Below are positions 18,145 through 40,535 of a stretch of DNA of 45,678 nucleotides, one piece after another (the stretch's first letter is position 1; each line of letters opens with the position of its first letter). The translations under genes and the position numbers were made by a program. The notes beneath the pieces were generated by a model that saw nothing but the letters and a program-made list of their open reading frames with translations, was not told the DNA's origin and ran no database searches. Origin of the DNA: a virus (taxonomy: Duplodnaviria > Heunggongvirae > Uroviricota > Caudoviricetes); the IMG/VR virus record IMGVR_UViG_2663763326_000005; one strand, written 5' to 3'.

Positions 18145-21825
<3,681 letters not shown>

Positions 21826-21851
<26 letters not shown>

Positions 21852-22371: not shown

Positions 22372-22379
22372 TGTTCATT

Positions 22380-22600
22380 CCACGGACAAAAACAGAGAAA
22401 GGAAACGACAGAGGCCAAAAAGCCCGTTTTCAGCACCTGTCGTTTCCTTTCTTTTCAGGGAGTGTTTTAAATAAAAACATTAAGTTACGGCGAAGAAGAA
22501 CGGAAACGCCTTAAACCGGAAAATTTTCATAAATAGCGAAAACCCGCGAGGTCGCCGCCCCGTAACCTGTTGGATCGACGGAAAGGACCCGAAAACGAGA
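22380..22600. other. cos site region; cosN 12-nt cohesive end at 22549-22560, cosB toward Nu1
   Basis: Reverse complement of 22549-22560 is GGGCGGCGACCT, the lambda cohesive end, followed (toward Nu1) by CGCGGGTTTTCGCTATTTATGAAAATTTTCCGGTTTAAGGCGTTTCCGTTCTTCTTCG..., which is lambda cosB-like. Confidence 0.85.
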
Positions 22601-22708
22601 ATAATTATCACTTACAGCAAGAATCGAATCTGATCTATTATGGTGCTTGCTATTATGTGCCGGCACAAGTGCGTCGTTTACCGTCATTTCACACAGAGGC
22701 ATCATCAA

Positions 22709-22960
22709 ATGAAAATCAGAAATATTCTCGCTATCTCCCTTGCGACATCATCCTTCAGTTGCCTGGCATTTAAATCCTCGCCCAATGTGCTACCAGGACC
22801 AACGAATCAACTAACTGCGGTAGAAAGTAAAATTATCGGACATTTTTATGCCCCACACAGTACATTACCCGGAACAACCATCACAGGGACATGTGACGCC
22901 TCCCCCGTCCCGGGATGCACCTGTCCGTTTTGTACTATGCTGCGTAGCCAAAACCGATAA
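22709..22960 (+). CDS. small secreted Cys-containing protein (83 aa), hypothetical
   Basis: ATG at 22709 preceded by AGAGG; N-terminal signal-peptide-like MKIRNILAISLATSSFSCLA; C-terminal part has CxxxxxxxxCxC cysteines. Confidence 0.45.
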   Translation: MKIRNILAISLATSSFSCLAFKSSPNVLPGPTNQLTAVESKIIGHFYAPHSTLPGTTITGTCDASPVPGCTCPFCTMLRSQNR

Positions 22961-23021
22961 CATCCGCATTTACCTGGTATTCCATGATGAGTTCACGCAG
23001 CGACTGATAGAGGAAGGAAAG

Positions 23022-23201
23022 ATGGTTAGTAAAAGCAAGGCGCATTGCCGCCGCATGCTGCAGGCATTGCAACAGACGAGAGCAGGTATTTTTGACCAGT
23101 TGGAAAACTGCCAGCATACTTTGCCCGAGTATATCGCCATCTCATCGGAAACCAGTGCAACTCTTATTCATCGGGTTCCACCAGAGAAAAAGAAGAAATG
23201 A
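23022..23201 (+). CDS. small hypothetical protein (59 aa)
   Basis: ATG at 23022 preceded by AGGAAGGAAAG; ends 6 bp before a bidirectional hairpin. Confidence 0.3.
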   Translation: MVSKSKAHCRRMLQALQQTRAGIFDQLENCQHTLPEYIAISSETSATLIHRVPPEKKKK

Positions 23202-23207
23202 ACAGTG

Positions 23208-23232
23208 AGGCGTTGTGTGGCATACAACGCCT
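23208..23232. terminator. bidirectional terminator-like hairpin between convergent genes
   Basis: AGGCGTTGT-GTGGCAT-ACAACGCCT (9-bp stem) followed by TCTTCC on plus; on minus it is followed after a short gap by a T-rich run. Confidence 0.5.
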
Positions 23233-23323
23233 TCTTCCATCATTCCTCGTCAGCCATGACAAAAATATAACCGCTGGCTCTTTCATTTTTCTCCTGCTTC
23301 CAGCCCCTCTCTACCTGGAAGCA

Positions 23324-23650
23324 TCAAGGACGTGACGGCGTAAAGATAAATTGTCTCTTCACTCCCTGACAGGGGCGATTCTTTTCAAATCGCCATTTCG
23401 CCATGGCCTTCACCACTTCATCACGAAACAAATTATGAGGCTCTGAGCGGAGAAAAACGATCCGTGTCACAGTCCCATCAGCACCAATATCGAACTTAAC
23501 CTCAACCAGCCCCTTGATATAATTTGCTGCAGCATATTCCGGATATCGTGGATACACCGTCACTAATTGCCGGGGCTCATCAGCTTTTTGCTGCGAGCAT
23601 CCCACTGCCAGGACAGATAACAGAAAAAGTAGTAAAAGGCGTCTTTTCAT
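23324..23650 (-). CDS. lipoprotein with TonB C-terminal-like domain (putative envelope protein)
   Basis: MKRRLLLLFLLSVLAVGCSQQ (lipobox-like LAVGC), then a TonB C-terminus-like segment (VYPRYPEYAAANYIKGLVEVKFDIGADGTVTRI). Confidence 0.55.
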   Translation of the reverse strand: MKRRLLLLFLLSVLAVGCSQQKADEPRQLVTVYPRYPEYAAANYIKGLVEVKFDIGADGTVTRIVFLRSEPHNLFRDEVVKAMAKWRFEKNRPCQGVKRQFIFTPSRP

Positions 23651-24130
23651 TTTTATTCCTACGGGTCTTATTCTGACAATATATCCTGTGTTCCAGACTG
23701 CCACATCACCACATCCTGTGCCATTATCTGACTCACATTACATACATCGCATCGGGATACAGTAGTAGCACTTTCTGTAATACAGCTTCCTGTTTCTTCC
23801 ACCATCGCACCGGGATAAACCCGCGAATCATTAACGCGGTAAAAACCCGGTGTGCATCGTTTTTAATTATTCCCGCACACTCACGCAGAAGGAATTCCCC
23901 GTCGGGCTACGGTCATGGTTAATGCGGGAATACGGCGACGATACAGCGCAGCTAAAAGGGTAATGGACGGATAGACCGGTTTATTTCATTCCACAGGATT
24001 CTGAGTGTCCCCAACTTCCTCCAATAGTCTGAGCCCACCTGTGTAGTTTTAATTTTCATCAATCCATTTAACTATCGTTTAATTGTTGTCACATAGGATT
24101 CTGCCGTTTTTAACAATGCAGGATAATAAG

Positions 24131-24424
24131 ATGAAAAAAATGTTGTTTTCTGCCGCTCTGGCAATGCTTATTACAGGATGTGCTCAACAGACGTTTACTG
24201 TTGGAAACAAACCTACAGCAGTAACACCAAAGGAAACCATCACCCATCATTTCTTCGTTTCGGGAATTGGGCAGAAGAAAACTGTCGATGCAGCAAAAAT
24301 TTGTGGTGGTGCAGAAAATGTTGTTAAAACAGAAACCCAGCAAACATTCGTAAATGGATTGCTCGGTTTTATTACTTTAGGCATTTATACTCCGCTGGAA
24401 GCGCGTGTGTATTGCTCACAATAA
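24131..24424 (+). CDS. bor: Bor lipoprotein (serum-resistance protein, Iss homolog)
   Basis: MKKMLFSAALAMLITGCAQQTFTVGNKPTAVTPKETITHHFFVSGIGQKKTVDAAKICGGAENVVKTETQQTFVNGLLGFITLGIYTPLEARVYCSQ matches lambda Bor as I recall it; ATG preceded by AGGATAATAAG. Confidence 0.85.
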   Translation: MKKMLFSAALAMLITGCAQQTFTVGNKPTAVTPKETITHHFFVSGIGQKKTVDAAKICGGAENVVKTETQQTFVNGLLGFITLGIYTPLEARVYCSQ

Positions 24425-24455
24425 TTGCATGAGTTGCCCATCGATATGGGCAGCT

Positions 24456-24917
24456 CTATCTGCACTGCTCATTAATATACTTCTGGGTTCCTTCCAGTTG
24501 TTTTTGCATAGTGATCAGCCTCTCTCTGAGGGTGAAATAATCCCGTTCAGCGGTGTCTGCCAGTCGGGGGGAGGCTGCATTATCCACGCCGGAGGCGGTG
24601 GTGGCTTCACGCACTGACTGACAGACTGCTTTGATGTGCAACCGACGACGACCAGCGGCAACATCATCACGCAGAGCATCATTTTCAGCTTTCGCATCAG
24701 CTAACTCCTTCGTGTATTTTGCATCGAGCGCAGCAACATCACGCTGACGCATCTGTATGTCAGTAATTGCCGCGTTCGCCAGCGTCAGTTCTCTGGCATT
24801 TTTGTCGCGCTGGGCTTTGTAGGTAATCGCGTTATCGCGGTAATGATTAACCGCCCATGAAAGGCAGACGATGACGCAGATAACCAGAGCGGAGATAATC
24901 GCGGTTATTCTGCTCAT
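24456..24917 (-). CDS. Rz: i-spanin Rz
   Basis: [97 protein letters not shown] matches lambda Rz. Confidence 0.9.
24515..24697 (-). CDS. Rz1: o-spanin Rz1 (embedded in Rz, +1 frame)
   Basis: [60 protein letters not shown]; lipobox and proline-rich as lambda Rz1. Confidence 0.85.
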
Positions 24918-25390
24918 ACCTCACTCTCTCTGAGCGTTCCGCCAGCTTCTTTGAATTTTGCAATCAGGCTGTCAGCCTTATGCTCGAACTGACCATAACC
25001 AGCGCCCGGCAGTGAAGCCCAGATATTGCTGCAACGGTCGATTGCCTGACGGATATCACCGCGATCAATCATCGGTAAAGCACCACGCTCTTTAATCTGC
25101 TGTAATGCCACTGCGTCCTGGCTTTTGGGGGAGAAGTCTTTCAAACCAAGCTGTTTACGGTAAGCATCCCACCAGCGTGAAAGAAGCTGATAACGTCCGG
25201 CGGCTGTTGATTTGAGTTTGGGGTGTAGCGTGACAAGTTTGCGAGGGTGATCGGAGTAATCAGTAAACAGTTCGCCGCCAACAATAACATCATAACCGTG
25301 GTTACGTGTCGGTTGTCGCCCGTTATCCGTTCCTTCTGACCACGCCAACATATCGAGGAAGGCTTTACGCTGAGGATTAAGATTTTGCAT
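24914..25390 (-). CDS. R: endolysin R (lytic transglycosylase)
   Basis: [85 protein letters not shown] matches lambda R. Confidence 0.9.
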
Positions 25391-25694
25391 TTTTCACCCC
25401 TGTCAGTCGTTCCCAGAAGTACGTCAGTGCAACCGAACCCATCGCACCACTAATCCCCGCTGTCGCGAGAATCATGTAAATACTGAATCCACTTTCGATG
25501 CTGATCAGGCCACCAATAACACCGGTGAATCCTGATACCACTATTTGAGCCAGAGCATTTATCCAACTCCACGTTGCTTTACTCTGCTTCACATCTATCA
25601 GGTAGCGGACCAGACCGCCCCAACCTGCGATGATCAGCAAAACGAGCCAGAACGCTCCGGCAAGGCTCTCTTTTTCGTGCATATGAATAGCCAA
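25377..25694 (-). CDS. holin (not lambda S-type), possible dual start
   Basis: 105-aa ORF immediately upstream of R with hydrophobic helices (FWLVLLIIAGWGGLV, IVVSGFTGVIGGLISI, IYMILATAGISGAMGSVALT); N-terminus MAIHM has two Mets four codons apart. Confidence 0.7.
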   Translation of the reverse strand: MAIHMHEKESLAGAFWLVLLIIAGWGGLVRYLIDVKQSKATWSWINALAQIVVSGFTGVIGGLISIESGFSIYMILATAGISGAMGSVALTYFWERLTGVKNAKS

Positions 25695-25796
25695 TGTTTC
25701 GCCGCCGACAAAAGGCCGGGACGTTAAATGTCAGAAATCAGGCTCACGGGGTAATTTAACGACAAAGCACGGAGTTGATGCTCCCCGCAAGCCTGG

Positions 25797-25822
25797 AATA
25801 AAAAAGCCAGCATGTAGCTGGC
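25797..25822 (-). terminator. intrinsic terminator in late leader (tR-prime-like)
   Basis: Minus strand GCCAGC-TACAT-GCTGGC followed by TTTTTTATT (plus 25806-25822 stem, A-run 25797-25805), between the Q-position gene and the holin. Confidence 0.7.
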
Positions 25823-25897
25823 AACAGAGGGTTAAGCAATATCAACTCAACAGCTGAAGACACCCTGGCTGGGGTAGGTTGGAAGGCTACTCACCGT

Positions 25898-25936
25898 TCA
25901 GAAACAGAAAAGCCCAAGGCTTTAAACCTCGGGCTT
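25898..25936 (-). terminator. second terminator-like hairpin in late leader
   Basis: Minus strand AAGCCCGAGG-TTTAAAG-CCTTGGGCTT (10-bp stem with one G.U) followed by TTCTGTTTCTG. Confidence 0.45.
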
Positions 25937-26003
25937 GAATTTGGATTACTGCCAGTGCGTACAACATTGGCAAAATATCAGATTTACATAAAATATATGA
26001 TTT

Positions 26004-26693
26004 TTAATCCAGTTTTGCAATATCTTGCTGTGAAAATATGGTCTTTTGTTTTGAACGTGTTTTCGTTAAAAGCAATAAAGCTTGGCTATCAAGCTGTAGA
26101 AAAATGTGCTTCATTGCAACCCAGCGTTCAGTAAATGTCTCAGACCAGTTTTTTGATGTCACTCCCACCAGTGATGCCAGCTCCTGGTATTCATAGGTCT
26201 TACGCCCTGCCAGCTCGTTCTTCACATCCTGTGCCGCCAGCCAGATCAACTTCTTCAAACGTTCCAGTGTTTTACCTGCAATTTTCCTGGTACCCAACAG
26301 AGTCTTAAACTCGCTCCATGCCCACTGCGTTATGGTGACCTGATGTTCCCAGCGAACACTTTCGCTGTAACTCCACAGCAACCACGCTTTCTGATGTTCT
26401 TCGAGAGACAGAACCGCGCGGCGCCATGACGAGGTTGAGAACTCAACCTGGCTGACCAGTGCAATGGATGAACCTTTTGCGTACAACTGCTTACCGGAAA
26501 TCGGCGGATTATCCAGCGTAATCATCCTGCCAGTTACCTCATCCAGAATGCGCGGCTTCTTTCGTTTGTATGTACCAGTATCAAATTGTGCATGCTCCAG
26601 CCAGGCTTCAAGCTGTCCTTTCGTTGCTCCGCTCAAATCAGCGGTAGCCACAATGAGTTGCTCGCGGACATACTGTAAATATTGGGTATTCAT
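26004..26693 (-). CDS. putative late-gene antiterminator at the Q position (non-lambda type, cysteine-free)
   Basis: 229-aa ORF between rusA and the terminator-containing late leader upstream of the holin. Not similar to lambda Q as I recall it and contains no Cys. AAGGAG RBS upstream. Confidence 0.5.
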   Translation of the reverse strand: MNTQYLQYVREQLIVATADLSGATKGQLEAWLEHAQFDTGTYKRKKPRILDEVTGRMITLDNPPISGKQLYAKGSSIALVSQVEFSTSSWRRAVLSLEEHQKAWLLWSYSESVRWEHQVTITQWAWSEFKTLLGTRKIAGKTLERLKKLIWLAAQDVKNELAGRKTYEYQELASLVGVTSKNWSETFTERWVAMKHIFLQLDSQALLLLTKTRSKQKTIFSQQDIAKLD

Positions 26694-26826
26694 GCGGCAG
26701 CTCCTTTCAGTGTTTTGGCGTAATTCTTCAGTATCCGGTAATCGGTCAAAACAGAACTAGGAAAACGATATAAGCGCAGGCGCACCCAGCGGCGGCGAAG
26801 ACGTTCTGCCATATAAGACTCAAACA

Positions 26827-27189
26827 TCATTCATCTCCCAGTTCAGTGATAGTCAGCTCCAGCTTCCCACCTTTGGTAACGGGCATCTTCACAACGCGGT
26901 AATCAACGACCTGAGCATCATCCAGCCAGAAACCTGCTTTGGTGAGTGCGTCAAAAGCGGCCTTTTGCAGATTATCAAGGTCACGGCGACGGCGATCCGG
27001 CATGTGGCACTCAATGCTGATTTTCACAGGAATAGCCAGGCCGATATCCAGCATTGCGTTTTTAATGATTCGGGCGACATTATCGCGGTATGCCTGCCCC
27101 TCTGCGCTGATATGCGTGCGTCCGCGATTATGGCGGTAATAGCGATTATTGCTCGGCGGCCAGGGTAGTGTGATGCAGTAAGTATTCAC
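26827..27189 (-). CDS. rusA: Holliday junction resolvase RusA
   Basis: [94 protein letters not shown]; RusA-family signature. Confidence 0.85.
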
Positions 27190-27476
27190 GCCTTAATTAC
27201 CCCCTCTTTCAGCCAGATAACCTGTGTTCTCGCCATACCTTCCAGCGCACATTCTTTTGCATATCCAGCGTCAACAAAATGCGTGCGACGGTCGATTTCG
27301 TCGTGGCAGGCAGAACATGCAATGGTGGCAATCAGGTCTGGCGGTTTGATACCGGTACCGCACAATCCAGCCAGCCGGATATGTGCCAGTACTGACGTTT
27401 CAGGATTGCCATTACATACGCCAGGGATTCTTACCTGGCATTCCCGACCACGCGCTGCTTTTCTCAAGTCAGCCAT
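27186..27476 (-). CDS. ybcO: YbcO-like nin-region protein (DUF1364-type, putative nuclease)
   Basis: [64 protein letters not shown]; Cys/His-rich. Start chosen at internal Met overlapping the ninE stop; stop overlaps rusA start. Confidence 0.65.
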
Positions 27477-27639
27477 GATTCCTCCTTGCTGCCAGTCGCA
27501 ACCATTTTTTATCAACCAGGCTGGCGGTATATCCGAGCAGTGTTGGTATTTCGGATGGTTTCAGCTCAGGCTTACGCTTACGACGATTTGGTACTCTGTA
27601 GATGTGTCCGTTCATGACACGAATAAGCGGTGTAGCCAT
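27469..27639 (-). CDS. ninE: NinE-like small protein (56 aa)
   Basis: Hand-translated: [56 protein letters not shown]. Basic, lambda NinE-like C-terminus (W-L-R-.-.-A-R). ATG overlaps the ybcN stop (TAATG). Below the ORF-track length cutoff. Confidence 0.5.
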   Translation of the reverse strand: MATPLIRVMNGHIYRVPNRRKRKPELKPSEIPTLLGYTASLVDKKWLRLAARRNHG

Positions 27640-28094
27640 TACGCCTCCTGCTTGTCGCGCAGCAGCTGGAACTCGCAGCTCTGCGGAATAGTCAGGTGGC
27701 AGCCAATATTCACCGCCCAGGCTTCAACCTTACACAGGAAGACATACATCTCTCCGGTATCGAGATCGGAGGTATGGCGTAACGACTGGATAGTAGTGAT
27801 TTCGCCGGTTACGACATCAACCAGGTCCTTGGTTTCATAACCGAGGTATGTGTGTTTGAGAGCATCTTTTACCCATGCTGCGGTAGCGAACGATTTCCCC
27901 CTGCTGATGAGGTATTCACTGATTTCGCTGTACCACATGTGGCTGAGTGCATTCTGGGAAAGACTGCGTTTCTCACGCCACGGTTTAAGCACCATGCGAA
28001 AGCATTTTCCGTTCTCCAGATAAGGCTGGATCTGCTGGCCGATAGCGATGAAGTTACCGCGATGCAGTTTGATGCCATCTTGTGGTAGGTTCAC
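27639..28094 (-). CDS. ybcN: YbcN-like nin-region protein
   Basis: [71 protein letters not shown].. resembles DLP12 YbcN as I recall it. Confidence 0.7.
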
Positions 28095-28541
28095 GCTTCA
28101 CCTCCACAGAGGTCAGACGCTAGATGCAAAAAAACGCAGGTGCATTTCTGCATCTGTGAAGGGAGAAGAGAGTTTGGATTGTGTGTGCGCATAAACGTCC
28201 CCGTTTAGCGCAGAAGTCACCGGAGTTGTTCAGGCTCCGGTGATACAATTATGGCGAATTGATTATTCATAATCAAACAAGATAAGGTCTCAAACTTCAT
28301 GCAAGCCAAGATTTATTTCTGACAGAATTATACAAAGAAGCTATTGGTCAGAATCTACTCGGACTGTAAAACATACGCATAACCTTAAGCTCTCACTTTA
28401 AGCATTGTTGAAATAATAGCCGTCAAGTACAACCTTAACCACGACTGGGATATTTCCCTGGCTACCACGAGTTGTACGGCTATTAAACTGCCGTTAAATT
28501 TAGTAAGAGAATTTCATCCGATAAGTCAAGGCATGTAAAAC

Positions 28542-29573
28542 ATGAAAATTAACAAGATATTATCATCTGCAACACTATTGTATGGTATGTCAATGGCCAT
28601 GTCGGTCGGGAGTTGTGCAACACCTGTCCAGACTAATCTTCCTGGTTACACCCCGGGTGCAGATATCATTAGTGTTTCACCGACCAGAAACCAGGTCGAT
28701 CTCATTGGTGATGTTGTTTATTCCCAGATAAAAGGAACTCGTTCTGTCAGACAGCTTCACATGTCAGTTCTTGTCCCGCGAACAAATGATTTAAAACCAG
28801 CCATTATTTATTATCCCGGCGGCGGATTCATGTCTTCTGAACATGACAAATTTATTGAAATGAGAATGGCTCTGGCAGAAGCTGGTTTTGTTGTGGCCGC
28901 TGTAGAATACAGAACAATTCCTGATACATTTCCAGCACCAGTTGAGGATGGAAAAGCTGCAATACGTTACCTGAGAGAGCATGCCAGCAATTATGGGATT
29001 GATCCTCAAAGAATCGGAGTTCTGGGTGACTCTGCCGGTGGATGGCTTGCCCAGATGATGGGAACTACAAATGGTGACAAAACCTTTGATAAAGGTGACT
29101 TTCTTCAGCAATCCTCAGATGTTCAGGCAGTTGCCACACTTTATGGGATTTCTGACTTGTTGAATATTGGCGAGGGGTTCCCTGAATCAGTGCAGGAGGT
29201 TCATCGCTCTCCTGCCGTAACCGAAGCCTTAATGATCAATGGCCCTGCATTCAGAAATTTTGCGGGAGCCCCCATCACAGCGTCAAAAGAAAAAGCGCTA
29301 AACGCCAGTCCAATCGGACATATGAAAGGAGTAAAACCCCCATTTCTTATTATGCATGGTAGCAAAGACACTCTGGTTTCACCTGAGCAAAGCGCCAAAC
29401 TATTCAGGATGTTGAAGAAGAACGGTGATAACGCTGAGTACGTGCTGGTAGAAGGGGCCGAGCATGGCGATAAGACATGGTATCAGCCAATTATTATAAA
29501 CAGAGTCGTTGAGTGGTTTACTAAAAACCTGGGAGCGCCTATAAAAACAGCTCCCCAACAACAAAACCCGTAA
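28542..29573 (+). CDS. secreted alpha/beta-hydrolase (esterase/lipase-like), 3-prime end clipped by IS insertion
   Basis: Signal-peptide-like N-terminus MKINKILSSATLLYGMSMAMSVGSCA; oxyanion-hole-like YYPGGGF; nucleophile-elbow-like GDSAGG; later H/D candidates (HGSKDT, AEHGD). The stop TAA (29571-29573) lies inside the IS66 left end. Confidence 0.7.
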   Translation: MKINKILSSATLLYGMSMAMSVGSCATPVQTNLPGYTPGADIISVSPTRNQVDLIGDVVYSQIKGTRSVRQLHMSVLVPRTNDLKPAIIYYPGGGFMSSEHDKFIEMRMALAEAGFVVAAVEYRTIPDTFPAPVEDGKAAIRYLREHASNYGIDPQRIGVLGDSAGGWLAQMMGTTNGDKTFDKGDFLQQSSDVQAVATLYGISDLLNIGEGFPESVQEVHRSPAVTEALMINGPAFRNFAGAPITASKEKALNASPIGHMKGVKPPFLIMHGSKDTLVSPEQSAKLFRMLKKNGDNAEYVLVEGAEHGDKTWYQPIIINRVVEWFTKNLGAPIKTAPQQQNP

Positions 29574-29599
29574 GCGTCAACGGAGCACCGTATTGACGC

Positions 29600-31213
29600 T
29601 TATTTATTGGTGAGTACTACGTTCCATGGCAGGAGTTCGTCAACTCGGTTGGAAGGCCATTCCGGCAGTACGCTCAGGATATGGCGCAGATACGCTTCCG
29701 GATCGATACCGTTCAGACGGCAGGTGCCGATCAGCCCGTACAACAGTGCTCCACGCTCGCCGCCGTGATCGCTGCCAAAGAACATAAAGTTTTTCTTTCC
29801 GAGACAGACTGCACGAAGCGCTCTTTCCGCAGCATTATTATCCGCCTCCGCCAGACCGTCATCACTGTAATAACAGAGGGCATCCCACTGATTCAGTACA
29901 TAGCTGAACGCTTCGCCCAGTCTGGATTTTTTCGACAGCGTACCATTCTTCTCCACCATCCATTCATGCAGCGACGTCAGTAACACTTTGCTTCGCTGCT
30001 GCCTGACGGCAAGACGCTCTGACTCCGGTAATCCCCGTATTTCATCCTCGATGGCGTACAGTTCACTGATTCGCTTCAGGGCTTCTTCTGCCGTCGCACT
30101 TTTGCTGCTGATGTATACATCGTGGATTTTTCGCCGGGCATGGGCCCAGCACGCAACTTCTGTCAGTGCACCACCTTCACGTTCTGCACTGAACAACCTG
30201 TCGTAACCTGTGAACGCATCCGCCTGCAGGATACCCCGGAAGGGGCGGAGGTGTTGCTCCGGGTGTTTCCCCTGCCGGTTCGGCGAGTACGCGAACCAGA
30301 CCGCTGGAGGAGATGACGAACCCACATTGCGATCATCCCGGACATACGTCCAGATACGCCCTGTTTTCGCCTTTTTCTGACCCGGTGCCAGTACCTTTAC
30401 CGGTGTGTCATCAGTGTGAACCTTGCGGGTGTTCATTACATAACGGTACAGGGCATCATTCACCGGTGTCATTAACTGGCAGCACGCGTCAACCCAGTTG
30501 GAGAGTAAGGCCCGGCTCAGTTCGACACCCTGGCGGGCAAAGATTTCACTCTGACGATACAGTGGCAGATGTTCGCAGTATTTTCCCGTTAACACGCGGG
30601 CAAGTAATCCGGGGCCCGCGATACCACGCTCTATCGGGCGGGACGGCGCCGGTGCTTCAACAATACAGTCACATTTTGTACAGGCTTTTTTTACCCGTTC
30701 TGTGCGGATCACTTTCAGGGCACTGCTCACCAGTTCCAGCTGTTCAGCGCTGACTTCCCCCAGATAATCCAGCTCACCGCCACACTCCGGGCAACAGCTT
30801 TCTTCTGGCTCCAGGCGGTGTATTTCACGGGGAAGGTGTGCCGGTAACGGACGACGATGGCGCGACTGTCGCAACTGGCGGGGAACCTGAGGATCGTCTT
30901 CCCGCCCACTGTAACGATCGCTGTCCTGTTCACGTTGTTTCAGCAGAGCCTCAGCCAGTTCAACTTCACGACGCAGTTTTTCAGAACGGGTACCGAACAG
31001 CATCCGGCGCAGTTTTTCTATCTGAGCCCGCAGATGTTCTATTTCCCGTTCATCTTCTTCGATCTTTTCTTCGGCACGTGTCAGTGCAGAGCGCAGGAAG
31101 GCTTCCGTCTCTTCAACCAGACTCAGTTGCTGGTCTTTCTGACGGAGGGCTTCAGCCTGCTCAGAGAGCAACCTTTCCAGCTCTGCGATGCGAATGAGGT
31201 ATTTCTGACTCAT
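29600..31213 (-). CDS. IS66-family transposase (TnpC/Orf3)
   Basis: 537-aa ORF with N-terminal coiled-coil/leucine-zipper-like region, Cys cluster (CPECGGEL, CTKCDC) and DDE-type core typical of IS66 transposases. Confidence 0.85.
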   Translation of the reverse strand: MSQKYLIRIAELERLLSEQAEALRQKDQQLSLVEETEAFLRSALTRAEEKIEEDEREIEHLRAQIEKLRRMLFGTRSEKLRREVELAEALLKQREQDSDRYSGREDDPQVPRQLRQSRHRRPLPAHLPREIHRLEPEESCCPECGGELDYLGEVSAEQLELVSSALKVIRTERVKKACTKCDCIVEAPAPSRPIERGIAGPGLLARVLTGKYCEHLPLYRQSEIFARQGVELSRALLSNWVDACCQLMTPVNDALYRYVMNTRKVHTDDTPVKVLAPGQKKAKTGRIWTYVRDDRNVGSSSPPAVWFAYSPNRQGKHPEQHLRPFRGILQADAFTGYDRLFSAEREGGALTEVACWAHARRKIHDVYISSKSATAEEALKRISELYAIEDEIRGLPESERLAVRQQRSKVLLTSLHEWMVEKNGTLSKKSRLGEAFSYVLNQWDALCYYSDDGLAEADNNAAERALRAVCLGKKNFMFFGSDHGGERGALLYGLIGTCRLNGIDPEAYLRHILSVLPEWPSNRVDELLPWNVVLTNK

Positions 31214-31243
31214 GACCGTTTTTATAATGCGGTCAGGAGTTTT

Positions 31244-31594
31244 TTACAACATTGTCAGTGAGTTACGGCTGGATGTTTTTGGCTGACGCCAGTCCAGCTT
31301 ATCGAGGAGCATTGCCAGTTGCGAGCGGGTAATGGATACCTTGCCGTCACGTACCGCAGGCCAGATAAACTGGCCTTCCTCCAGGCGTTTGGTGAACAGG
31401 CACAGACCATCAGCATCAGCCCAAAGAATTTTGACGGTGTCACCCCGTCGGCCACGGAAGATAAACAGGTGACCGGAGAAGGGATTATCATTCAGCACAT
31501 GTTGTACCTGTTCTCCCAGTCCGTTGAAGGATTTACGCATATCGGTAACGCCGGCAACGAGCCAGATACGGGTACCTGATGGGAGTGAGATCAT
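31244..31594 (-). CDS. IS66-family accessory protein TnpB (Orf2)
   Basis: MISLPSGTRIWLVAGVTDMRKSFNGLGEQVQHVLNDNPFSGHLFIFRGRRGDTVKILWADADGLCLFTKRLEEGQFIWP; typical IS66 Orf2. Confidence 0.85.
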   Translation of the reverse strand: MISLPSGTRIWLVAGVTDMRKSFNGLGEQVQHVLNDNPFSGHLFIFRGRRGDTVKILWADADGLCLFTKRLEEGQFIWPAVRDGKVSITRSQLAMLLDKLDWRQPKTSSRNSLTML

Positions 31595-32016
31595 CTTCCC
31601 CTCCCGGTCAGTTCACGGATCAACACTGTGAGCAGCTCTGGCGATGGATTTTCCAGCGTCATGTTACCGTGACGGAATTCCACCTTGCAGGAACTGGCAC
31701 TGACTCTGGTCTGAGTGGAAGTGGATAAAGACGGCGCAATGGCCGCCACAGGTTCTTTCTGCTCATCCGGCGTTATTTCTACAGGTAATAATTCAACGCC
31801 AGTGTCAGAAGAGGTCGTTACCGGAAGACGCCGCGAAACACGCCCTTCGTTCTGCCAGAGCCTGAGCCATTTGAAAATAACATTATCATTGACGCCATTT
31901 TCACGTGCAATCTGTGCAACACAAGCTCCAGGTTGTGATGCCAGTTCCACCATACGAAGTTTGAATTCATTCGAATAGTTTTTACGAGGTTCTTTTCGCC
32001 AGTCCTGTAATTCCAT
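31591..32016 (-). CDS. IS66-family accessory protein TnpA (Orf1)
   Basis: 141-aa ORF with HTH-like segment (ASQPGACVAQIARENGVNDNVIFKWLRLW); overlaps TnpB start (ATGA). Confidence 0.8.
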   Translation of the reverse strand: MELQDWRKEPRKNYSNEFKLRMVELASQPGACVAQIARENGVNDNVIFKWLRLWQNEGRVSRRLPVTTSSDTGVELLPVEITPDEQKEPVAAIAPSLSTSTQTRVSASSCKVEFRHGNMTLENPSPELLTVLIRELTGRGR

Positions 32017-32130
32017 ACTTAGATGTCCGTCTATATCAGATGGGCGTCTAAGTTACCAATTCTCGTCTGATGGCTACATACGGCGGTCAGTTTACGCTTA
32101 CCAAAACCCAAACGCTAACCTGTAAAAAGA

Positions 32131-32149
32131 GGGAGGGCTAAGCCCTCCC
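32131..32149. terminator. bidirectional intrinsic terminator shared by the hydrolase (pre-insertion) and the adhesin gene
   Basis: GGGAGGGC-TAA-GCCCTCCC. On the minus strand it directly follows the adhesin stop and is followed by TCTTTTTAC; on plus it is followed by CATTCAATTTTG. Confidence 0.75.
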
Positions 32150-32161
32150 CATTCAATTTTG

Positions 32162-35100
32162 TTAACTATCCTTTTCAGGTAGTTTTACAACATAAGTCCT
32201 TATTGTTTTCTCATATGTATTTTTGCTATTCGTTATTTTGGCCTTAATCCAGTGATAACCACTTTCATAGGTGCTGAATTCCGAAGCTGCATTACCTGTC
32301 CAGTGTAACGTTACTGTAGCAGGCTCCATTTTGACCCGTTGAGAGTCTGGACTATCTTCACTACCAGCAGAAAACTCAACCGTACCAGATAATGGGTTTC
32401 CAAAATGATCGACAAATCGAGCATAAATACCTACTGGAGATCCATCGTTTGTCTCATAACCAGGATCTTTTGTTAGAGTCAATACTCCATTTGCGTCATC
32501 AGCGTACAGGGAGAATGATTTCACCGCGCTAACATCACTGCCAAGTTCGTTTAAGGTCGCCGTTAATTTATACGAACCAACCGTTCGACCATGTACGCTT
32601 ACCGTAGCCTGACCGTTCTCATCAGTCGTTACTGTGGTTTTATCAACCACCAACGCACCATATTTAGACGGCCCAGATGTCTTAACATTCAATGCTCGAC
32701 CACTTAATGCTTCGCCTGACTTACTTTTCAACAGTAACGTAAATACCAGATTGTTGGTATCGCTCACTACAGCCGAAGATGCAGATGATGTGATCTCCAA
32801 CACAGCCCCCTTCACATCCGTCACGGCATCAATATTCTGGCTTGCGGTTATGCGTTTCCCATCCAGAACATACTCGGCCTGAATTGTGTACTGGCCTGAT
32901 TTCGATGCAGTGAACTGCGTTGTTGCCTGTCCATGAGCATCCAGTTGCAGATTACTACTGGTCAATGATGCTCCCGTCGATGGTGTAATCGTTAAATCCA
33001 CCTCGCCTGTAAACGCATTGTTATTCGCATCAACCAACTGAATGTTTACTGTTGCGTTTTCACTGCCATCGGCCACAATCTCCTGTTTTGATACACTCAT
33101 ATTCAGTTCTGCAGAAGCAACATCGGGCACAAAAGTTAACTTAACGCTGCCAGATTCCACGCTATGGGAACCGTCAGTCACCCGTGCAGTCACCGTGTAC
33201 TCACCAGCTTTCACCGTTGTAAGCGGAACAGAAACATGCCCTGTTGAATCAGTCACGATATTTGTTGGTACAGATAATCCTTCAGATGAGGTGATGAGCT
33301 GAATCTTTTGCCCATTGACCGACGCATTCGTATTTGTCAGCTGCACATCTAATACCGCTGCATCCTTACCATTAGCAGGAATATTGGAAATTAAACTACT
33401 GCTTTCAGGCGTCAGTGACAGTGAAGCTCCGGTCATATTTGATGCAAAGGTCACTGTTAACTCAGTAGACATCTGAGAACCAGCATGAGCTGTAATCACG
33501 TAAGACCCCGGAGTGGAGCTTATTAACGCAAAAATAGCATTACCATTTTCGTCAGTTGAAACAGCATGTTCACCACCAACTTGAGTTATCCCTGCTGGTA
33601 AAGACAATGTGACAGCATAACCAGGAACAACATTGCCGAAACGGTCCGCAAGGCTTACAGTTACCATATTTCTCTGTTTTCCATCAGCCAATGCATTATT
33701 TTGGCTGGCTTCAAACTGAGAGAATGTAACCTGCTGCCGGTCCTCAATAAAGGTGATTTCTTTCTTAACACCTGAGAAATCATGACTATCAGATTTAACA
33801 CCGATAGTAATCTTACCAGCTCGTTTTGAAGTTACTGTCGCGCTATAGACACCGTCTTTTTCCGTTACAGTCCCAAACTCGACTCCTTCTGCCTGGTTAA
33901 GAGCATAAAAGCTCAGAGTGTTATCACCAGTGATTGCATTTCCTTGTGAATCCTTCACTGCCAGTTGTAGATTGATATTGTAACCAACTACCTGTTCTGC
34001 TGGTGCAGCGGTTAAAACAGCACTGACCTCAGAATCAGGTTCTGTTGTTGCTGTTTGCTTAATACTGAGAGTAAATGTTTTTCCCTGAACTTTTGCAGTT
34101 ACACGTACCGTACCAGCCTGCGAACCAGCAGCCAGAACAGAGCGATATACCCCAGCAGAGATTTCCTCTACCGCGCCTAATGACGGAGCAGTTACCGTTT
34201 CACGCTGTCGAGCACTATTGCTATCTGCTGTAAATTCCACTGACATTTCAATGTCATCAGCCAGTCCGGTTAATGCCTTACCGTTACTATCTTTCAGGCT
34301 TAATACTATCGGATAAGTGGATTGGCTATCAGCAGAGATCGTCGGCGACGAATCTCCATCCAGTGTAAAAGACGAATCAGCTGTCGATACATCACTATCA
34401 GTAATGGCTGCCTGCTTAATATTCAGAGTAAAGGTTTTTCCCTGAACTTTTGCAGTTACACGTACCGTACCAGCCTGCGAACCAGCAGCCAGAACAGAGC
34501 GATATACACCAGCAGAGATTTCCTCTACCGCGCCTAATGACGGAGCAGTTACCGTTTCACGCTGTCGAGCACTATTGCTATCTGCTGTAAATTCCACTGA
34601 CATTTCAATGTCATCAGCCAGTCCGGTTAATGCCTTACCGTTACTATCTTTCAGGCTTAATACTATCGGATAAGTGGATTGGCTATCAGCAGAGATCGTC
34701 GGCGACGAATCTCCATCCAGTGTAAAAGACGAATCAGCTGTCGATACATCACTATCAGTAATGGCTGCCTGCTTAATATTCAGAGTAAAGGTTTTTCCCT
34801 GAACTTTTGCAGTTACACGTACCGTACCAGCCTGCGAACCAGCAGTCAGAACAGAGCGATATACCCCAGCAGAGATTTCCTCTACCGCGCCTAATGACGG
34901 AGCAGTTACCGTTTCACGCTGTCGAGCACTATTGCTATCTGCTGTAAATTCCACTGACATTTCAATGTCATCAGCCAGTCCGGTTAATGCCTTACCGTTA
35001 CTATCTTTCAGGCTTAATACTATCGGATAAGTGGATTGGCTATCAGCAGAGATTGTCGGCGACGAATCTCCATCCAGTGTAAAAGACGAATCAGCCGTCG

Positions 35101-36427
35101 AGACACCACTATCAGTAACGCTAATATTCATCACGGCATAGTTGGAAACGTTGCCTCTGTTATCCTGTACTGTGGCTCCAACATTCCACGAATTTACACC
35201 TTCGCTTTTATAAGCCGGTAAAGTGATCTGCCATGATGTGCCATTTCCACTGATCTTGCCGCCAGCCGCAGTGAATGCACTATCATTCCACTGTACAGAC
35301 TTGATACCACCACTAGCATTGTTGATTGTCAGTGTTACAGGGATGATTGATTCCCCCTCCCCCTGAACAGACTCTGGCAAACTGATTTTCAGTGCATGCT
35401 TCTTCTTGTACTCCAGAACAATGTTGTTATTTCGTTCAACAAAATCATAACGCCGGTTCTGGACTTCTCGCATAACTGCAACATTATCGCTGCTAAGCTG
35501 TTCAGCCAAGGAAACGCCCGGGCGATAATTAAACTCAACACCAAAGGTTGTATCGTGAGTGTTGCTCTGTCCTTGCTTATGCTGTGCAGAAAACTTAATC
35601 AGAGGAACTGGTGTATAAGAAATTCCCCCAGTAACTGCGTAAGGGTTTTCCTGCAGGTTATCGCTTCCAAATAACCCGACATTTTTACCATAATATTTTT
35701 CAAACTGAATAGATGCCCCTAATTGCGGATAAGCAGGTAGCCATCCTTCAGCAGAAAAATCCCAGCCATTTGCAGGTCTTTCCAGATAATCATCAATATC
35801 ACGACTGTTCTTCCAGTCAGATAGACCAAAATAGGTATTTACACCAAGCCTGAAATAATCCCTCCAGTACTCAACCCCAAAACCTGCACGAGAGTGACTA
35901 CGACTTAAATCGTAATCATAGAAAACATTCGCACCCAACATTGCGTTATCAGGAGTGAAATGACGAATCCCCAAACCAATATTGGTCTGATTTCGGTCAT
36001 CAGTACGATGTAGTGATGTCTGACTGAATAACACATAATCCTGAGTATCCAGCCATGGATATAAAAAGTCGAATGATGAATCCTTCAAGGAAAAAGAATC
36101 ATCGACATTAAGCTTGATGCGCGCATTGCCATATTGTTGCAACCAGTCGACGACCTCTTTTGTCGCCTGAGTTGATAAAGTATTTACAGCAAAACTACTT
36201 GCATTATTATTCGCCAGGCTCTGACCTGCACTTGCTGCAAATGAGGCCACTTTATTTGCATGCTCATCGCTGGCATAAATTTGCGTAACATCTTTATTAC
36301 CAGATGATGCAAAACTGTTTGCTGGGATCAAAGAAAGAGAAACTGGAGATAATATCTGGGTAACAATTACCGACCATGTAATCGCGCCAGATGCAGTTTT
36401 TTTTAACTTTTTATTCACAGTGGTCAT
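32162..36427 (-). CDS. inverse autotransporter adhesin (intimin/invasin family), 1421 aa, with Ig-like repeats
   Basis: N-terminal signal/anchor, then a beta-barrel-like region (DFLYPWLDTQDYVLFSQTSLHRTDDRNQTNIGLGIRHF.., GFGVEYWRDYFRLGVNTYF, EGWLPAYPQLGASIQFEKYYG), then a long series of Ig-like passenger repeats including three near-identical 119-aa units. AT-rich upstream region. Confidence 0.8.
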   Translation of the reverse strand: MTTVNKKLKKTASGAITWSVIVTQILSPVSLSLIPANSFASSGNKDVTQIYASDEHANKVASFAASAGQSLANNNASSFAVNTLSTQATKEVVDWLQQYGNARIKLNVDDSFSLKDSSFDFLYPWLDTQDYVLFSQTSLHRTDDRNQTNIGLGIRHFTPDNAMLGANVFYDYDLSRSHSRAGFGVEYWRDYFRLGVNTYFGLSDWKNSRDIDDYLERPANGWDFSAEGWLPAYPQLGASIQFEKYYGKNVGLFGSDNLQENPYAVTGGISYTPVPLIKFSAQHKQGQSNTHDTTFGVEFNYRPGVSLAEQLSSDNVAVMREVQNRRYDFVERNNNIVLEYKKKHALKISLPESVQGEGESIIPVTLTINNASGGIKSVQWNDSAFTAAGGKISGNGTSWQITLPAYKSEGVNSWNVGATVQDNRGNVSNYAVMNISVTDSGVSTADSSFTLDGDSSPTISADSQSTYPIVLSLKDSNGKALTGLADDIEMSVEFTADSNSARQRETVTAPSLGAVEEISAGVYRSVLTAGSQAGTVRVTAKVQGKTFTLNIKQAAITDSDVSTADSSFTLDGDSSPTISADSQSTYPIVLSLKDSNGKALTGLADDIEMSVEFTADSNSARQRETVTAPSLGAVEEISAGVYRSVLAAGSQAGTVRVTAKVQGKTFTLNIKQAAITDSDVSTADSSFTLDGDSSPTISADSQSTYPIVLSLKDSNGKALTGLADDIEMSVEFTADSNSARQRETVTAPSLGAVEEISAGVYRSVLAAGSQAGTVRVTAKVQGKTFTLSIKQTATTEPDSEVSAVLTAAPAEQVVGYNINLQLAVKDSQGNAITGDNTLSFYALNQAEGVEFGTVTEKDGVYSATVTSKRAGKITIGVKSDSHDFSGVKKEITFIEDRQQVTFSQFEASQNNALADGKQRNMVTVSLADRFGNVVPGYAVTLSLPAGITQVGGEHAVSTDENGNAIFALISSTPGSYVITAHAGSQMSTELTVTFASNMTGASLSLTPESSSLISNIPANGKDAAVLDVQLTNTNASVNGQKIQLITSSEGLSVPTNIVTDSTGHVSVPLTTVKAGEYTVTARVTDGSHSVESGSVKLTFVPDVASAELNMSVSKQEIVADGSENATVNIQLVDANNNAFTGEVDLTITPSTGASLTSSNLQLDAHGQATTQFTASKSGQYTIQAEYVLDGKRITASQNIDAVTDVKGAVLEITSSASSAVVSDTNNLVFTLLLKSKSGEALSGRALNVKTSGPSKYGALVVDKTTVTTDENGQATVSVHGRTVGSYKLTATLNELGSDVSAVKSFSLYADDANGVLTLTKDPGYETNDGSPVGIYARFVDHFGNPLSGTVEFSAGSEDSPDSQRVKMEPATVTLHWTGNAASEFSTYESGYHWIKAKITNSKNTYEKTIRTYVVKLPEKDS
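34050..35120. repeat. three near-perfect direct tandem repeats of 357 bp inside the adhesin gene
   Basis: The same string (e.g. gcttaat.. at 34057, 34414, 34771) recurs with a 357-bp period. It encodes DSGVSTADSSFTLDGDSSPTISADSQSTYPIVLSLKDSNGKALTGLADDIEMSVEFTADSNSARQRETVTAPSLGAVEEISAGVYRSVL.. three times and produces identical spurious plus-strand ORFs at 34322, 34679 and 35036. Confidence 0.9.
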
Positions 36428-36676
36428 AGTTCAATCAACGTTATGAATATAATGAAAAAAATAACTGGTATGACAAGAGGCGCGAAATATACAGCTCGTT
36501 ACAAAAAAATCAACTCAAAAATAAAATAAAATCTCTGCATAAACTTTATGGCTAAATGATTTCACAACAATGGAAGAAAAATTTTGTTGCTCACGCAATC
36601 AATCATTTCGGGCGTTACAACTAGTCCTAGATTATATTCGCTAGGTATACTTTATTTTTAAGCTAATACTTTAGCT

Positions 36677-37378
36677 CTATTTCATCGCTCCTTTCAGCCC
36701 GAACTTAGCTTTGATTTCTGCGATCTTCGCCAGAGCCTGTGCACGATTTAGAGGCCTACCGCCCATGACAGGAAGTTGTTTTACTGGTTCAGGTATAGCC
36801 TCACCACGGTTAATTCGCGCGGTCATACAGGCCAGTTCATCGGCAGCCTTGCGCCGTAATTCCGCGTCAGTCAACGCATTGGCCCGCATGTTCTGATACA
36901 GGTTGGTAACCAGCCAGTAGTGCGCGTTTGATTTCCACGGATAAGACTCTGCATCCGGATACAGACCACGCTTCCGGCAATACTCGTAAACCATATCAAC
37001 CAGCTCGCTGACGTTTGGCAGCCCGGCGGTAACGGATGCTTCTTCCCGGCACCATGCAACAAACTGCCCGGGTGATGGCAGAAATGGTCTATTCTGCCGA
37101 CGGGCAACACGCATTCCGTCGCTCACCTGCTCCATCGTGGTGATCCCGTTTTCCCGGAAAGCCAGAACCCACTGGCGGCGGATTTCGTTCAGTTCGTTCT
37201 GGTCACGATTAGCCAGGCTCGCCGGGAAAGTTGCCAGTAACTGGCTGAATACACCGTTGATTATCTGCGCTACCTGCTGTACCTGCGGCTTTTCGTCGTA
37301 CTGTTCCGGCATGTTGTTGGCGATCCGACGCATCTGCTCACGGTCAAAGTTAATCATCTGTGCGGCGATGTTTTTCAT
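36677..37378 (-). CDS. P: replication protein P (DnaB helicase loader)
   Basis: MKNIAAQMINFDREQMRRIANNMPEQYDEKPQVQQVAQIINGVFSQLLATFPASLANRDQNELNEIRRQWVLAFRENGITTMEQV; 233 aa as lambda P. Confidence 0.9.
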   Translation of the reverse strand: MKNIAAQMINFDREQMRRIANNMPEQYDEKPQVQQVAQIINGVFSQLLATFPASLANRDQNELNEIRRQWVLAFRENGITTMEQVSDGMRVARRQNRPFLPSPGQFVAWCREEASVTAGLPNVSELVDMVYEYCRKRGLYPDAESYPWKSNAHYWLVTNLYQNMRANALTDAELRRKAADELACMTARINRGEAIPEPVKQLPVMGGRPLNRAQALAKIAEIKAKFGLKGAMK

Positions 37379-38394
37379 AGATCCACCCCGTAAATCCAGT
37401 CTGTGTTTGTCAGGTCGAGTTTTGGTTTGCTAGCTGTCACGCCTGCCTGTTGCTTGTTACGGTTGATTTCGAGTTGGGTCCACTTGTCGCGGAGTTTGGC
37501 CGGACTTAGCACGTTACCGGACCAGAAGTTGTCCTGGCATGCCCAGCGGAACAGCACGCACATGTCGCGGTGGTTACGTCCGTCACGTTCACGCATCAGG
37601 CGGATATCGTTAGCCCACCCTGCAAAATTCGGTTTTCTGGCTGATGGCGCGATGGTCTTCACCATGTCAAACATCCACTCTGCGGCGGTCAGGTCTTCTG
37701 CTGTCCCCCACTTGCTGCCGCTCTGAATTGCAGCATCCGGTTTCACCACAGGAAGATCGTTTTCTGGTTGGTCAGAGGATTCGCCAGAATTCTCGGACGA
37801 AAAAGGTTTTATATTGTCTTTTGTTAGTTTGTCTTTTGTGTTTACCTGATTCGGGTAAACGCCTTTACCTGATTTGGGTAAACTTTTTTTACCTGATTCA
37901 GGTAAATTTACCTCTTTCAGGTAAACTTTATTTTTCTTACCTGATTCGGGTAATGTTGACCATTCACTGACCACATTATTAATGCCGGTATTCCGCCCGC
38001 TCTGAATAAAAATCCCACGCTTTACCAGAACACTTTTTGCAGCAGAACACTTGTGCGGCAATATCCCGGTTAATTCGGAAAGTTGCTCGTTGCTAACCCA
38101 ATCCAGTTTTTTATTAAAGCCATATGTTTTGCGCATGACAGCCAGAAAGACCAGAAGCTGGTGCTGTGTTAATCCGGCCAGCATCACAGCTTCCAGCAAC
38201 TCATTTGCAATGCGCGTATAACCATCATCGAGATCTGCCACGCGCGGCTCCTTTTGTGCCGCATCCGGCACTGGAAAATTGAATATCTCAGCAGTGTTTG
38301 CCATAATTCCTCCCGCAATGAGTGTGTTACGATTTGCACCTGAAAGTCGGTTCTGTTCCAGCAGACCGGCTTTCGCCATTTCTGAACCTGTCAT
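37375..38394 (-). CDS. O: replication initiator O-like protein (origin-binding)
   Basis: Lambda-O-like N-terminal domain (ADLDDGYTRIANELLEAVMLAGLTQHQLLVFLAVMRKTYGFNK), iterons inside the coding sequence, stop overlaps the P start. Confidence 0.8.
   Translation of the reverse strand: MTGSEMAKAGLLEQNRLSGANRNTLIAGGIMANTAEIFNFPVPDAAQKEPRVADLDDGYTRIANELLEAVMLAGLTQHQLLVFLAVMRKTYGFNKKLDWVSNEQLSELTGILPHKCSAAKSVLVKRGIFIQSGRNTGINNVVSEWSTLPESGKKNKVYLKEVNLPESGKKSLPKSGKGVYPNQVNTKDKLTKDNIKPFSSENSGESSDQPENDLPVVKPDAAIQSGSKWGTAEDLTAAEWMFDMVKTIAPSARKPNFAGWANDIRLMRERDGRNHRDMCVLFRWACQDNFWSGNVLSPAKLRDKWTQLEINRNKQQAGVTASKPKLDLTNTDWIYGVDL
37842..37954. repeat. replication origin iterons (5 x 17-bp TTACC..GGTAA) with adjacent AT-rich tract
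   Basis: TTACCTGATTCGGGTAA (37842), TTACCTGATTTGGGTAA (37865), TTACCTGATTCAGGTAA (37889), TTACCTCTTTCAGGTAA (37908), TTACCTGATTCGGGTAA (37938); AT-rich 37801-37841. Confidence 0.8.
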
Positions 38395-38930: not shown

Positions 38931-38999
38931 AATTGACTCCTTTAGTTTGAATTGACTGTTAAGTTGATTGCTTATTGTTAAAGAGCGTGAAATGGAAAT

Positions 39000-39230: not shown

Positions 39231-39334
39231 AACAACCTCCGTGGTTAATTTGAATCAAGATTAAAACTATGGTTGTTTTTAGTCAACAACCATTTTCGTT
39301 TGATGGAATAAAACCTTGGTTGTACATTTGGACT
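39231..39334. promoter_or_regulatory. OR operator / divergent PR and PRM promoter region
   Basis: Palindrome ATGGTTGTT-TTTAGTC-AACAACCAT (39269-39293) plus further AACAACC/GGTTGT half-sites. Candidate PR on minus: TTGACT (39281-39286), 17 bp, TAATCT (39258-39263). Candidate PRM on plus: TTGATG (39300-39305), 17 bp, TACATT (39323-39328), with cI ATG at 39335 (leaderless-like). Confidence 0.6.
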
Positions 39335-40345: not shown

Positions 40346-40346
40346 T

Positions 40347-40489: not shown

Positions 40490-40535
40490 AACTCAACATT
40501 TCATACCTTAGTCGCTTCAACGAGGCGGCTTAGTT

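Follow-up and report, generated by a model that had tools for sequence, protein, structure and literature searches.

The window analysed here, 45,678 nucleotides (nt) of viral DNA (Caudoviricetes; IMG/VR record IMGVR_UViG_2663763326_000005), is a lambdoid prophage of Escherichia coli ST131 (sequence type 131), integrated at icd. It carries two convergent cargo genes, one for an alpha/beta hydrolase and one for an inverse-autotransporter adhesin, with an insertion sequence (IS), ISEc23, close to their junction. ISEc23 almost certainly arrived by a single transposition into the hydrolase gene and was then inherited clonally, and the event is one of many in a stretch of about 2 kb, where at least 24 distinct ISEc23 insertions were found. 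Roughly 500 genomes with this cargo hold about 40 independent insertions of three insertion sequences within a few kilobases.

Recurrent insertions around a shared terminator

The first sign of recurrence came from searches with the window's own IS junctions, which gave ISEc23 at slightly shifted places in strain THO-015 and another isolate. The locus was then searched with chimeric queries, in which an IS end is joined to a stretch of the locus, so that genomes with an IS near that stretch outrank both empty alleles and distant IS copies. Each match was fetched, and IS ends and target duplications were placed by exact string matching. Positions refer to the IS-free allele, with the hydrolase ATG as origin; in this numbering the hydrolase stop ends at 1044, the terminator shared by the two genes occupies about 1050-1068, and the adhesin stop lies at about 1081.

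Nineteen distinct ISEc23 sites were mapped exactly, that of the window included. Every element is 2532 bp long, with 0-4 mismatches, and has its own perfect 8-bp duplication. On the hydrolase side the sites are 474, 650, 774, 783, 799, 807, 808, 851, 864 and 1028, the last being that of the window, and on the adhesin side 1117, 1118, 1143, 1162, 1275, 1329, 1362, 2022 and 2612. Five more sites in the adhesin gene, at about 1602, 2196, 2267, 2375 and 2522, are estimated from alignment spans only. The zone that holds all of these is 2139 bp long (474-2612, equivalent to window 29015-29569 plus 32110-33693), and its core, 474-1362, has 17 sites within 889 bp around the convergent terminator. The 8-bp duplication was different at each of 24 other ISEc23 copies examined, at the locus and in the controls described below.

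The background was measured with controls of the same query design, using 5-kb stretches of prophage backbone that together probe about 12 kb to the left and to the right of the locus. Both orientations were covered, with 1300-nt IS ends, which separate the alleles cleanly. The left control (window 17000-29014) gave six ISEc23 sites, five of them exact, at 21208, 21555, 22093, 24741 and 25825. The sixth lies 19 bp inside an end of another element, ISEc52, at window position 25031, with the duplication ACAAAAAC (L026, strain TO60; strain NR2550 is likewise indicated). The right control (33693-46700 in window numbering) gave three, at about 36655, 41600 and 44-45k. Three parts had no ISEc23 site in either the control or the locus queries: the adhesin gene over its 5' 2.7 kb, the hydrolase gene over its first 473 nt, and the nin/Q region. 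The background is therefore 9 sites in about 25 kb of flanking prophage, or 0.36 per kb. The core has 19 per kb, which is 53-fold higher (Poisson P about 8e-24), and the wider zone 474-2612 has 11 per kb, which is 31-fold higher. Within the genes the hits keep to the 3' side: all nine in the hydrolase gene (1044 bp) fall within its final 570 bp (p = 0.004), and all 14 in the adhesin gene (4266 bp) within its final 1531 bp (p = 6e-7).

Some individual sites deserve comment. Positions 807 and 808 (L016 and L006) and positions 1117 and 1118 (L018 and L011) are pairs of independent ISEc23 insertions 1 bp apart and in opposite orientations, which suggests locally preferred sites that can be used in either orientation. 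At about 1324, in the 3' end of the adhesin gene of E. coli 2015C-4136CT1 (L009), there is a different IS66-family element (TnpC WP_006703274.1), in a locus 96.7% identical. Among the background sites, 24741 is 284 bp from a second convergent junction, where the prophage's serum-survival gene iss meets rzpD, and the ISEc52 that hosts the nested ISEc23 itself sits in the prophage lysozyme gene.

ISEc52, an IS3-family element of 1250 bp recovered from locus L026, was searched for in turn with its end as the query. Eighteen genomes have it within or beside the cargo genes, representing at least about 14 insertions. Three were placed exactly, at 943 (duplication ATC; window 29484, L028), 1470 (GTT; window 32551, L029) and 1061 (TAAG; window 32142, L030). 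The site at 1061 falls within the loop of the terminator hairpin common to both genes, and the genome concerned bears the window's ISEc23 as well. The others, from span estimates, are at about -1273, -548, 2712, 2720, 2803, 2946, 2990, 3499, 3690 and 3951. Over 10 kb of control backbone only a few ISEc52 alleles were seen among the ranked matches, all in the left region. Given that an unrelated element also enters the cargo, the clustering is not specific to IS66-family enzymes.

Possible causes of the clustering

Two simple causes were examined and set aside. When 19 sites are aligned by IS orientation, the duplicated octamer shows a G-A....T-C/T tendency, too weak for a target motif to account for the clustering. 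Base composition is no better: the hot core is 55.5% AT, as against 56.2% in the cold 5' half of the adhesin gene and 57.8% in the cold 5' end of the hydrolase gene taken together with the region upstream of it. Over the 24 ISEc23 sites there is no orientation bias, with 9 like the window and 15 opposite (p = 0.3). A scan of species-representative genomes with the IS end returned 14 loci only, several of them on plainly contaminant contigs in metagenome-assembled genomes, which is too few for a genome-wide test of a preference for convergent 3' ends.

The clustering could be an artefact of heavy ST131 sampling and of the search design. ST131 is indeed strongly over-represented among complete genomes, the queries depended on the search's rule for joining alignment pieces, and five positions come from spans only. 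However, the controls shared genomes, query design and prophage with the locus searches and gave few sites. Moreover, 19 ISEc23 and three ISEc52 sites were confirmed at the level of single bases, and no two of them rely on a common duplication. An artefact is very improbable.

This leaves two explanations that are not mutually exclusive and carry similar weight. The elements may have a regional target preference, set by the local state of the DNA or chromatin at the convergent junction (supercoiling, a nucleoid protein, R-loops or stalled forks near the terminator, for example); we consider this a serious possibility that stops somewhat short of an even chance. Or it may be advantageous, or free of cost, for ST131 to disrupt or remodel the hydrolase, the distal C-terminal part of the adhesin or both, whichever IS does so, which we regard as possible. 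The location of the sites favours targeting. With the terminator at their centre lie 24 sites in 2139 bp, 17 of them within 889 bp, as against nine in about 25 kb of flanks. The host should tolerate insertions in the rest of the prophage about as well, yet they are 30-50 times rarer there. Hits are limited to the 3' parts of both genes, a pattern that plain selection for knock-outs would not give, and ISEc23 avoids the 5' halves, where a knock-out would be equally effective. The commonest allele, that of the window, disrupts neither gene. The two pairs of opposite insertions 1 bp apart, the different IS66-family element at about 1324 in an unrelated strain, and an AT content that does not follow the hot spot also fit a preference for the region.

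The identity of the elements, on the other hand, favours selection. The cargo is enriched for two unrelated families, represented by ISEc23 and ISEc52, and has a third element from the IS66 family besides. The presence of the IS3-family ISEc52 in 18 genomes, including the sites 943, 1061 and 1470, counts against an effect specific to IS66-family elements. By our own tally an IS is present in the locus in about a quarter of the roughly 500 genomes that have the locus at 99% identity or more. Large surface adhesins are also classic targets for switching on and off by IS, as with IS256 in the staphylococcal ica operon. The likeness to that system lies in many independent hits in a surface-adhesin gene within one clone; the present locus differs in that there is no evidence of reversibility or of a phenotype, that the neighbouring hydrolase gene and the intergenic terminator are hit as well, and that the commonest allele keeps both genes essentially intact. 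Further points against targeting are that the duplicated octamers share so weak a tendency, and that one such junction only was examined in depth. The literature gave no regional-targeting mechanism for IS66-family elements, and no paper on their target preference or on recurrent insertion at this prophage locus; this is weak evidence, as most of the relevant papers, in subscription journals, lay outside the search.

On the basis of these observations we tentatively put forward that the convergent 3' ends may be a genuine regional hot spot for transposition in ST131, to which ISEc23, and to a lesser degree ISEc52, may be drawn by the state of the DNA or chromatin in a zone of about 1-2 kb around the shared terminator, and not by sequence or base composition. 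If targeting is the cause, the locus is a natural and densely sampled system for studying the target choice of IS66-family elements. If selection is the cause, a surface adhesin carried by the prophage, along with its partner esterase, is time and again altered or lost in ST131. That would bear on the question of which ST131 surface proteins can be spared, or carry a cost, in the host.

The window insertion, its empty site and its spread

An earlier reading of the window, made from the sequence only, described an IS66-family element at 29562-32109 as a simple and probably recent insertion between the convergent genes, with an intact 8-bp target duplication. The element, its coordinates (all exact) and its family are borne out by the open reading frames, Pfam domains, terminal repeats and RefSeq name, and the octamer CAAAACCC is indeed present on both sides, at 29562-29569 and 32102-32109. 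Its placing needs a small correction: the element is near the junction, as described, but it is not strictly between the genes, since it lies inside the hydrolase reading frame 15 nt before the natural stop.

The empty site was reconstructed from the window by joining 600 bp ending in one copy of CAAAACCC to the 600 bp after the other copy, 1208 bp in total. Among complete E. coli genomes this matches EC958, JJ1886, JJ1887 and many more ST131 genomes at 100% over 1208 bp without a gap, and 421 records hold the empty site in one piece (at least 80% covered). IS-free alleles hold exactly one CAAAACCC. In EC958 the locus is in a lambdoid prophage integrated beside icd, where a 1044-nt hydrolase gene (347 amino acids (aa), WP_000700202.1) converges with a 4266-nt inverse-autotransporter gene (WP_022645049.1), and the pair is flanked by replication gene P and by ybcN/ninE/rusA/Q. 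The window aligns to EC958 in two collinear blocks, 8963-29569 and 32102-45678, which overlap in EC958 by exactly 8 bp. The 20.6-kb block has one mismatch and one gap and the 13.6-kb block has no differences, an identity of 99.99-100%. The window itself ends exactly at the end of the integrase gene. The collinear blocks, the overlap equal to the duplication and the existence of a real empty site with 100% identity together show that the insertion is simple and that the hydrolase ending ...QQQNPNANL followed by a stop is genuine. Alignment to an IS-free allele, the check that the sequence-only reading had proposed, thus recovers the junction as reconstructed, and nothing among the comparisons made contradicts a simple insertion.

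Junction queries of 400 bp of flank plus 400 bp of IS matched 68 genomes for the left junction and 69 for the right. These totals include a few cases in which the search joined insertions at neighbouring sites, giving an estimate of about 65 genomes with the window's allele. The fetched records name humans, a dog, wastewater and rivers as sources, with Japan and Switzerland among the places of origin. The annotation of THO-003 shows the very arrangement of the window, its hydrolase being 343 aa long (WP_029700859.1). As about 65 complete genomes share the insertion, it would date to the ancestor of a subclone, and it appears to be an inherited clonal marker and not a private event. This qualifies the description of the insertion as recent. 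Zero divergence from other IS copies and nearly identical flanks indicate an event that is recent on an evolutionary scale, but an allele shared by genomes of many countries would go back to the ancestor of the subclone.

The most probable course of events is that one ISEc23 copy transposed once into the icd-integrated lambdoid prophage of an ST131 ancestor, landing 15 nt before the stop of the cargo (moron) hydrolase gene. The DDE transposase TnpC would have made a staggered cut in the target, the repair of which produced the duplication CAAAACCC, as expected from the behaviour of the family, and the allele would then have passed clonally to the genomes sequenced. The reverse order, with the IS-bearing allele ancestral and IS-free alleles arising by precise excision, would likewise leave a single CAAAACCC in IS-free alleles but has no specific support. 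IS-free alleles far outnumber IS-bearing ones (421 one-piece empty-site records against about 65 genomes), the empty site is intact in 18 of 18 genomes that have ISEc23 at another exactly mapped position of the locus, and precise excision of DDE-type insertion sequences is generally rare. We consider this order of events extremely improbable. Taken by itself, the window insertion is a textbook IS event, and at most a handy marker for one ST131 subclone.

The element and its effect on the neighbouring genes

The element occupies window 29570-32101 and is a complete IS of 2532 bp with its genes on the minus strand. Its parts, and the two copies of the duplication, are as follows.

29562..29569, no strand: left copy of the target-site duplication, CAAAACCC, spanning codons Q-N of the hydrolase together with bases 1 and 2 of the P codon
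29570..32101, minus strand: ISEc23, IS66 family, 2532 bp, complete; 100% identity to many E. coli copies
29570..29593, no strand: right inverted repeat (IRR), the terminal inverted repeat at the tnpC end, GTAAGCGTCAACGGAGCACCGTAT; 20/24 complementary to IRL
29600..31213, minus strand: tnpC, DDE transposase, 537 aa (PF03050, PF13005, PF13007, PF13817; WP_000080195.1)
31244..31594, minus strand: tnpB, IS66 Orf2-type accessory protein, 116 aa (PF05717, E 1e-36; WP_000624722.1)
31591..32016, minus strand: tnpA, helix-turn-helix accessory protein, 141 aa (PF01527, HTH_Tnp_1, E 5e-12; WP_000422741.1)
32078..32101, no strand: left inverted repeat (IRL), the terminal inverted repeat at the tnpA end, reading GTAAGCGTAAACTGACCGCCGTAT on the minus strand (repeat finder)
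32102..32109, no strand: right copy of the target-site duplication, CAAAACCC, a perfect 8-bp match to the left copy

The left end begins GTAAGCGTCAAC at 29570 and the right end closes with GTTTACGCTTAC at 32101. Across the left junction, in the hydrolase frame, the sequence reads ...CAA CAA AAC CC/G TAA GCG TCA ACG G..., and across the right junction ...CAGTTTACGCTTAC/CAAAACCC AAACGCTAACCTGTAA, the stroke marking the IS boundary. The longest inverted repeat that the repeat finder gave for the region is the pair of IS termini (24 nt, 20/24, 83% complementary), and both open with GTAAGCGT. Imperfect terminal repeats of about 20-30 bp that start 5'-GTAAGCG are typical of the IS66 family. The octamer CAAAACCC occurs only twice in the window, each time directly outside an IS terminus. 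It is not rare in itself, with 1.9 occurrences expected by chance, but the chance of an octamer abutting both termini is by our own arithmetic 4^-8, or about 1.5e-5.

All three reading frames are intact. The ATG of tnpB overlaps the stop of tnpA (ATGA, 31591-31594), and a 30-nt gap precedes tnpC. The tnpC product matches DDE_Tnp_IS66 (PF03050) with E 9e-98 over profile positions 1-283 of 284, and also has zinc-finger, leucine-zipper and C-terminal domains. The tnpB product is of the IS66 Orf2 type (PF05717) and is unrelated to the IS200/IS605 TnpB nuclease, in agreement with the RefSeq note on the identical protein. For IS679, transposition is reported to require the products of all three genes. 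Every structural hallmark of the IS66 family known to us is present, and the element is a member of that family.

For a closer identification, the 2532 bp were compared by megablast with 5,426 complete E. coli genomes. Full-length copies with 100% identity occur on chromosomes and plasmids; the annotation by the RefSeq pipeline PGAP reads 'IS66-like element ISEc23 family transposase', accompanied by tnpA and tnpB. In 3,333 records there is a copy with a query coverage of 80% or more, with a median of three places per genome that has any. By sequence identity the element is a copy of what RefSeq/PGAP annotates as ISEc23. ISEc23 is a named element with one copy on pEC958, the resistance plasmid of the ST131 strain EC958 (PMC4398462). 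ISEc23 as annotated, on pEC958 included, has the same 2532-bp sequence, the same three proteins and 8-bp duplications at every copy examined, and does not differ from the window copy; the same insertion allele is already annotated in about 65 RefSeq genomes. An 8-bp target duplication is described for IS66 (PMC6778807).

The founding and best-studied members of the family are IS66, from Agrobacterium Ti plasmids, and IS679 and ISEc8, from pathogenic E. coli. They resemble the window element in their tnpA-tnpB-tnpC organisation, DDE TnpC, GTAAGCG ends and 8-bp duplication, and are distinct from it in sequence. The gene order, the DDE TnpC and the GTAAGCG terminal repeats are reportedly general to the family. 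In other E. coli records, which matched at about 93-97% identity, related elements bear the RefSeq label ISEc8 family or plain IS66 family. Structurally the element offers nothing new, and public genomes already include the annotated insertion itself.

The features on either side of the element are these.

28542..29573, plus strand: alpha/beta hydrolase (BD-FAE / esterase-lipase type, probable lipoprotein), 343 aa, four residues short, with its stop TAA at 29571-29573 in the IS
29571..29602, no strand: IS-end hairpin with arms TAAGCGTCAA / TTGACGCTTA, 10 bp perfect, followed by TTTATTTATT on the plus strand (repeat finder, folding)
32111..32125, plus strand: orphaned end of the hydrolase gene, AAC GCT AAC CTG TAA, N-A-N-L-stop (read from the sequence)
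32131..32149, no strand: GC-rich hairpin, candidate bidirectional intrinsic terminator common to the convergent genes (terminator scan, folding)
32162..36427, minus strand: inverse-autotransporter (intimin/invasin-like) adhesin gene, 1421 aa, intact (PF11924, E 6e-101; Big_1 / Invasin_D3 repeats; WP_022645049.1)

The hydrolase had been described as clipped by four codons, and it is: the window frame ends ...APQQQNP, whereas the IS-free form ends ...APQQQNPNANL and a stop, giving 343 aa in IS-bearing and 347 aa in IS-free genomes. Its new stop, TAA, is supplied by bases 2-4 of the IS. Removal of the IS and one copy of the duplication restores ...QQQNPNANL, followed by the shared terminator hairpin GGGAGGGCTAAGCCCTCCC, again as the sequence-only reading had it; with the IS in place the hairpin is 2.5 kb from the hydrolase stop, and the gene is cut off from its terminator. 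The Pfam domains of the hydrolase finish by about residue 331, and the GDSAGG and ...EGAEHGD motifs are well upstream in the translation. Since the whole catalytic-domain sequence is kept and only N-A-N-L is lost, the 343-aa protein is probably still functional.

The shared terminator hairpin has a terminator-like score on both strands and a stable fold, and it still adjoins the adhesin stop. The IS end itself forms a second hairpin. Its arms, 29571-29580 and 29593-29602, come from the terminal repeat and from a complement of it further inside the IS. On both strands T-rich sequence follows, and the hairpin overlaps both the new hydrolase stop and the tnpC stop. Folding gives a centroid of -17.9 kcal/mol (z -3.3) on the plus strand and -20.1 (z -2.8) on the minus strand, and the terminator scan lists a terminator-like site on the minus strand at 29584..29567. 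This hairpin may terminate the tnpC transcript and, in place of the original terminator, that of the hydrolase.

The adhesin gene and its terminator are untouched by the IS. The IS genes share the strand of the adhesin gene but are directed away from it and into the hydrolase side. Any transcript running out of tnpC would thus lie antisense to the hydrolase gene, and the earlier suggestion of using RNA-seq to look for outward transcription from the IS into the adhesin gene has the geometry reversed. The adhesin's own terminator lies between the adhesin and the IS, and read-through from the adhesin must cross it before reaching tnpA. Outward promoters in the IS were considered and rejected: a consensus scan gave 5 promoter-like sites against 4.9 expected in shuffled sequence. 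Inspection of the IS ends showed a TTGACG hexamer at the tnpC end with no usable -10 in the flank, and gave no evidence of IS-driven transcription of the neighbours.

It is worth adding that the adhesin gene contains, at window 34056-35118, three tandem copies of a 357-bp unit that are 98% identical. Repeat number varies, other genomes being one or two units shorter (for example 3552 nt as against 4266 nt). Exact 41-nt matches to the ISEc23 end (L032, L033, L035 and L041-L044) were also found on short contigs from assemblies assigned to Lachnospiraceae, Clostridia, Rikenellaceae, Moraxella osloensis and Streptococcus sanguinis; the contigs are most likely contaminating or mis-binned enterobacterial DNA. 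Elsewhere in the prophage, the replication-gene region has an array of repeats of about 20 bp at window 37841-37934, TTTACCTGATTCGGGTAAAC and variants, which looks like the iterons of a lambdoid origin.

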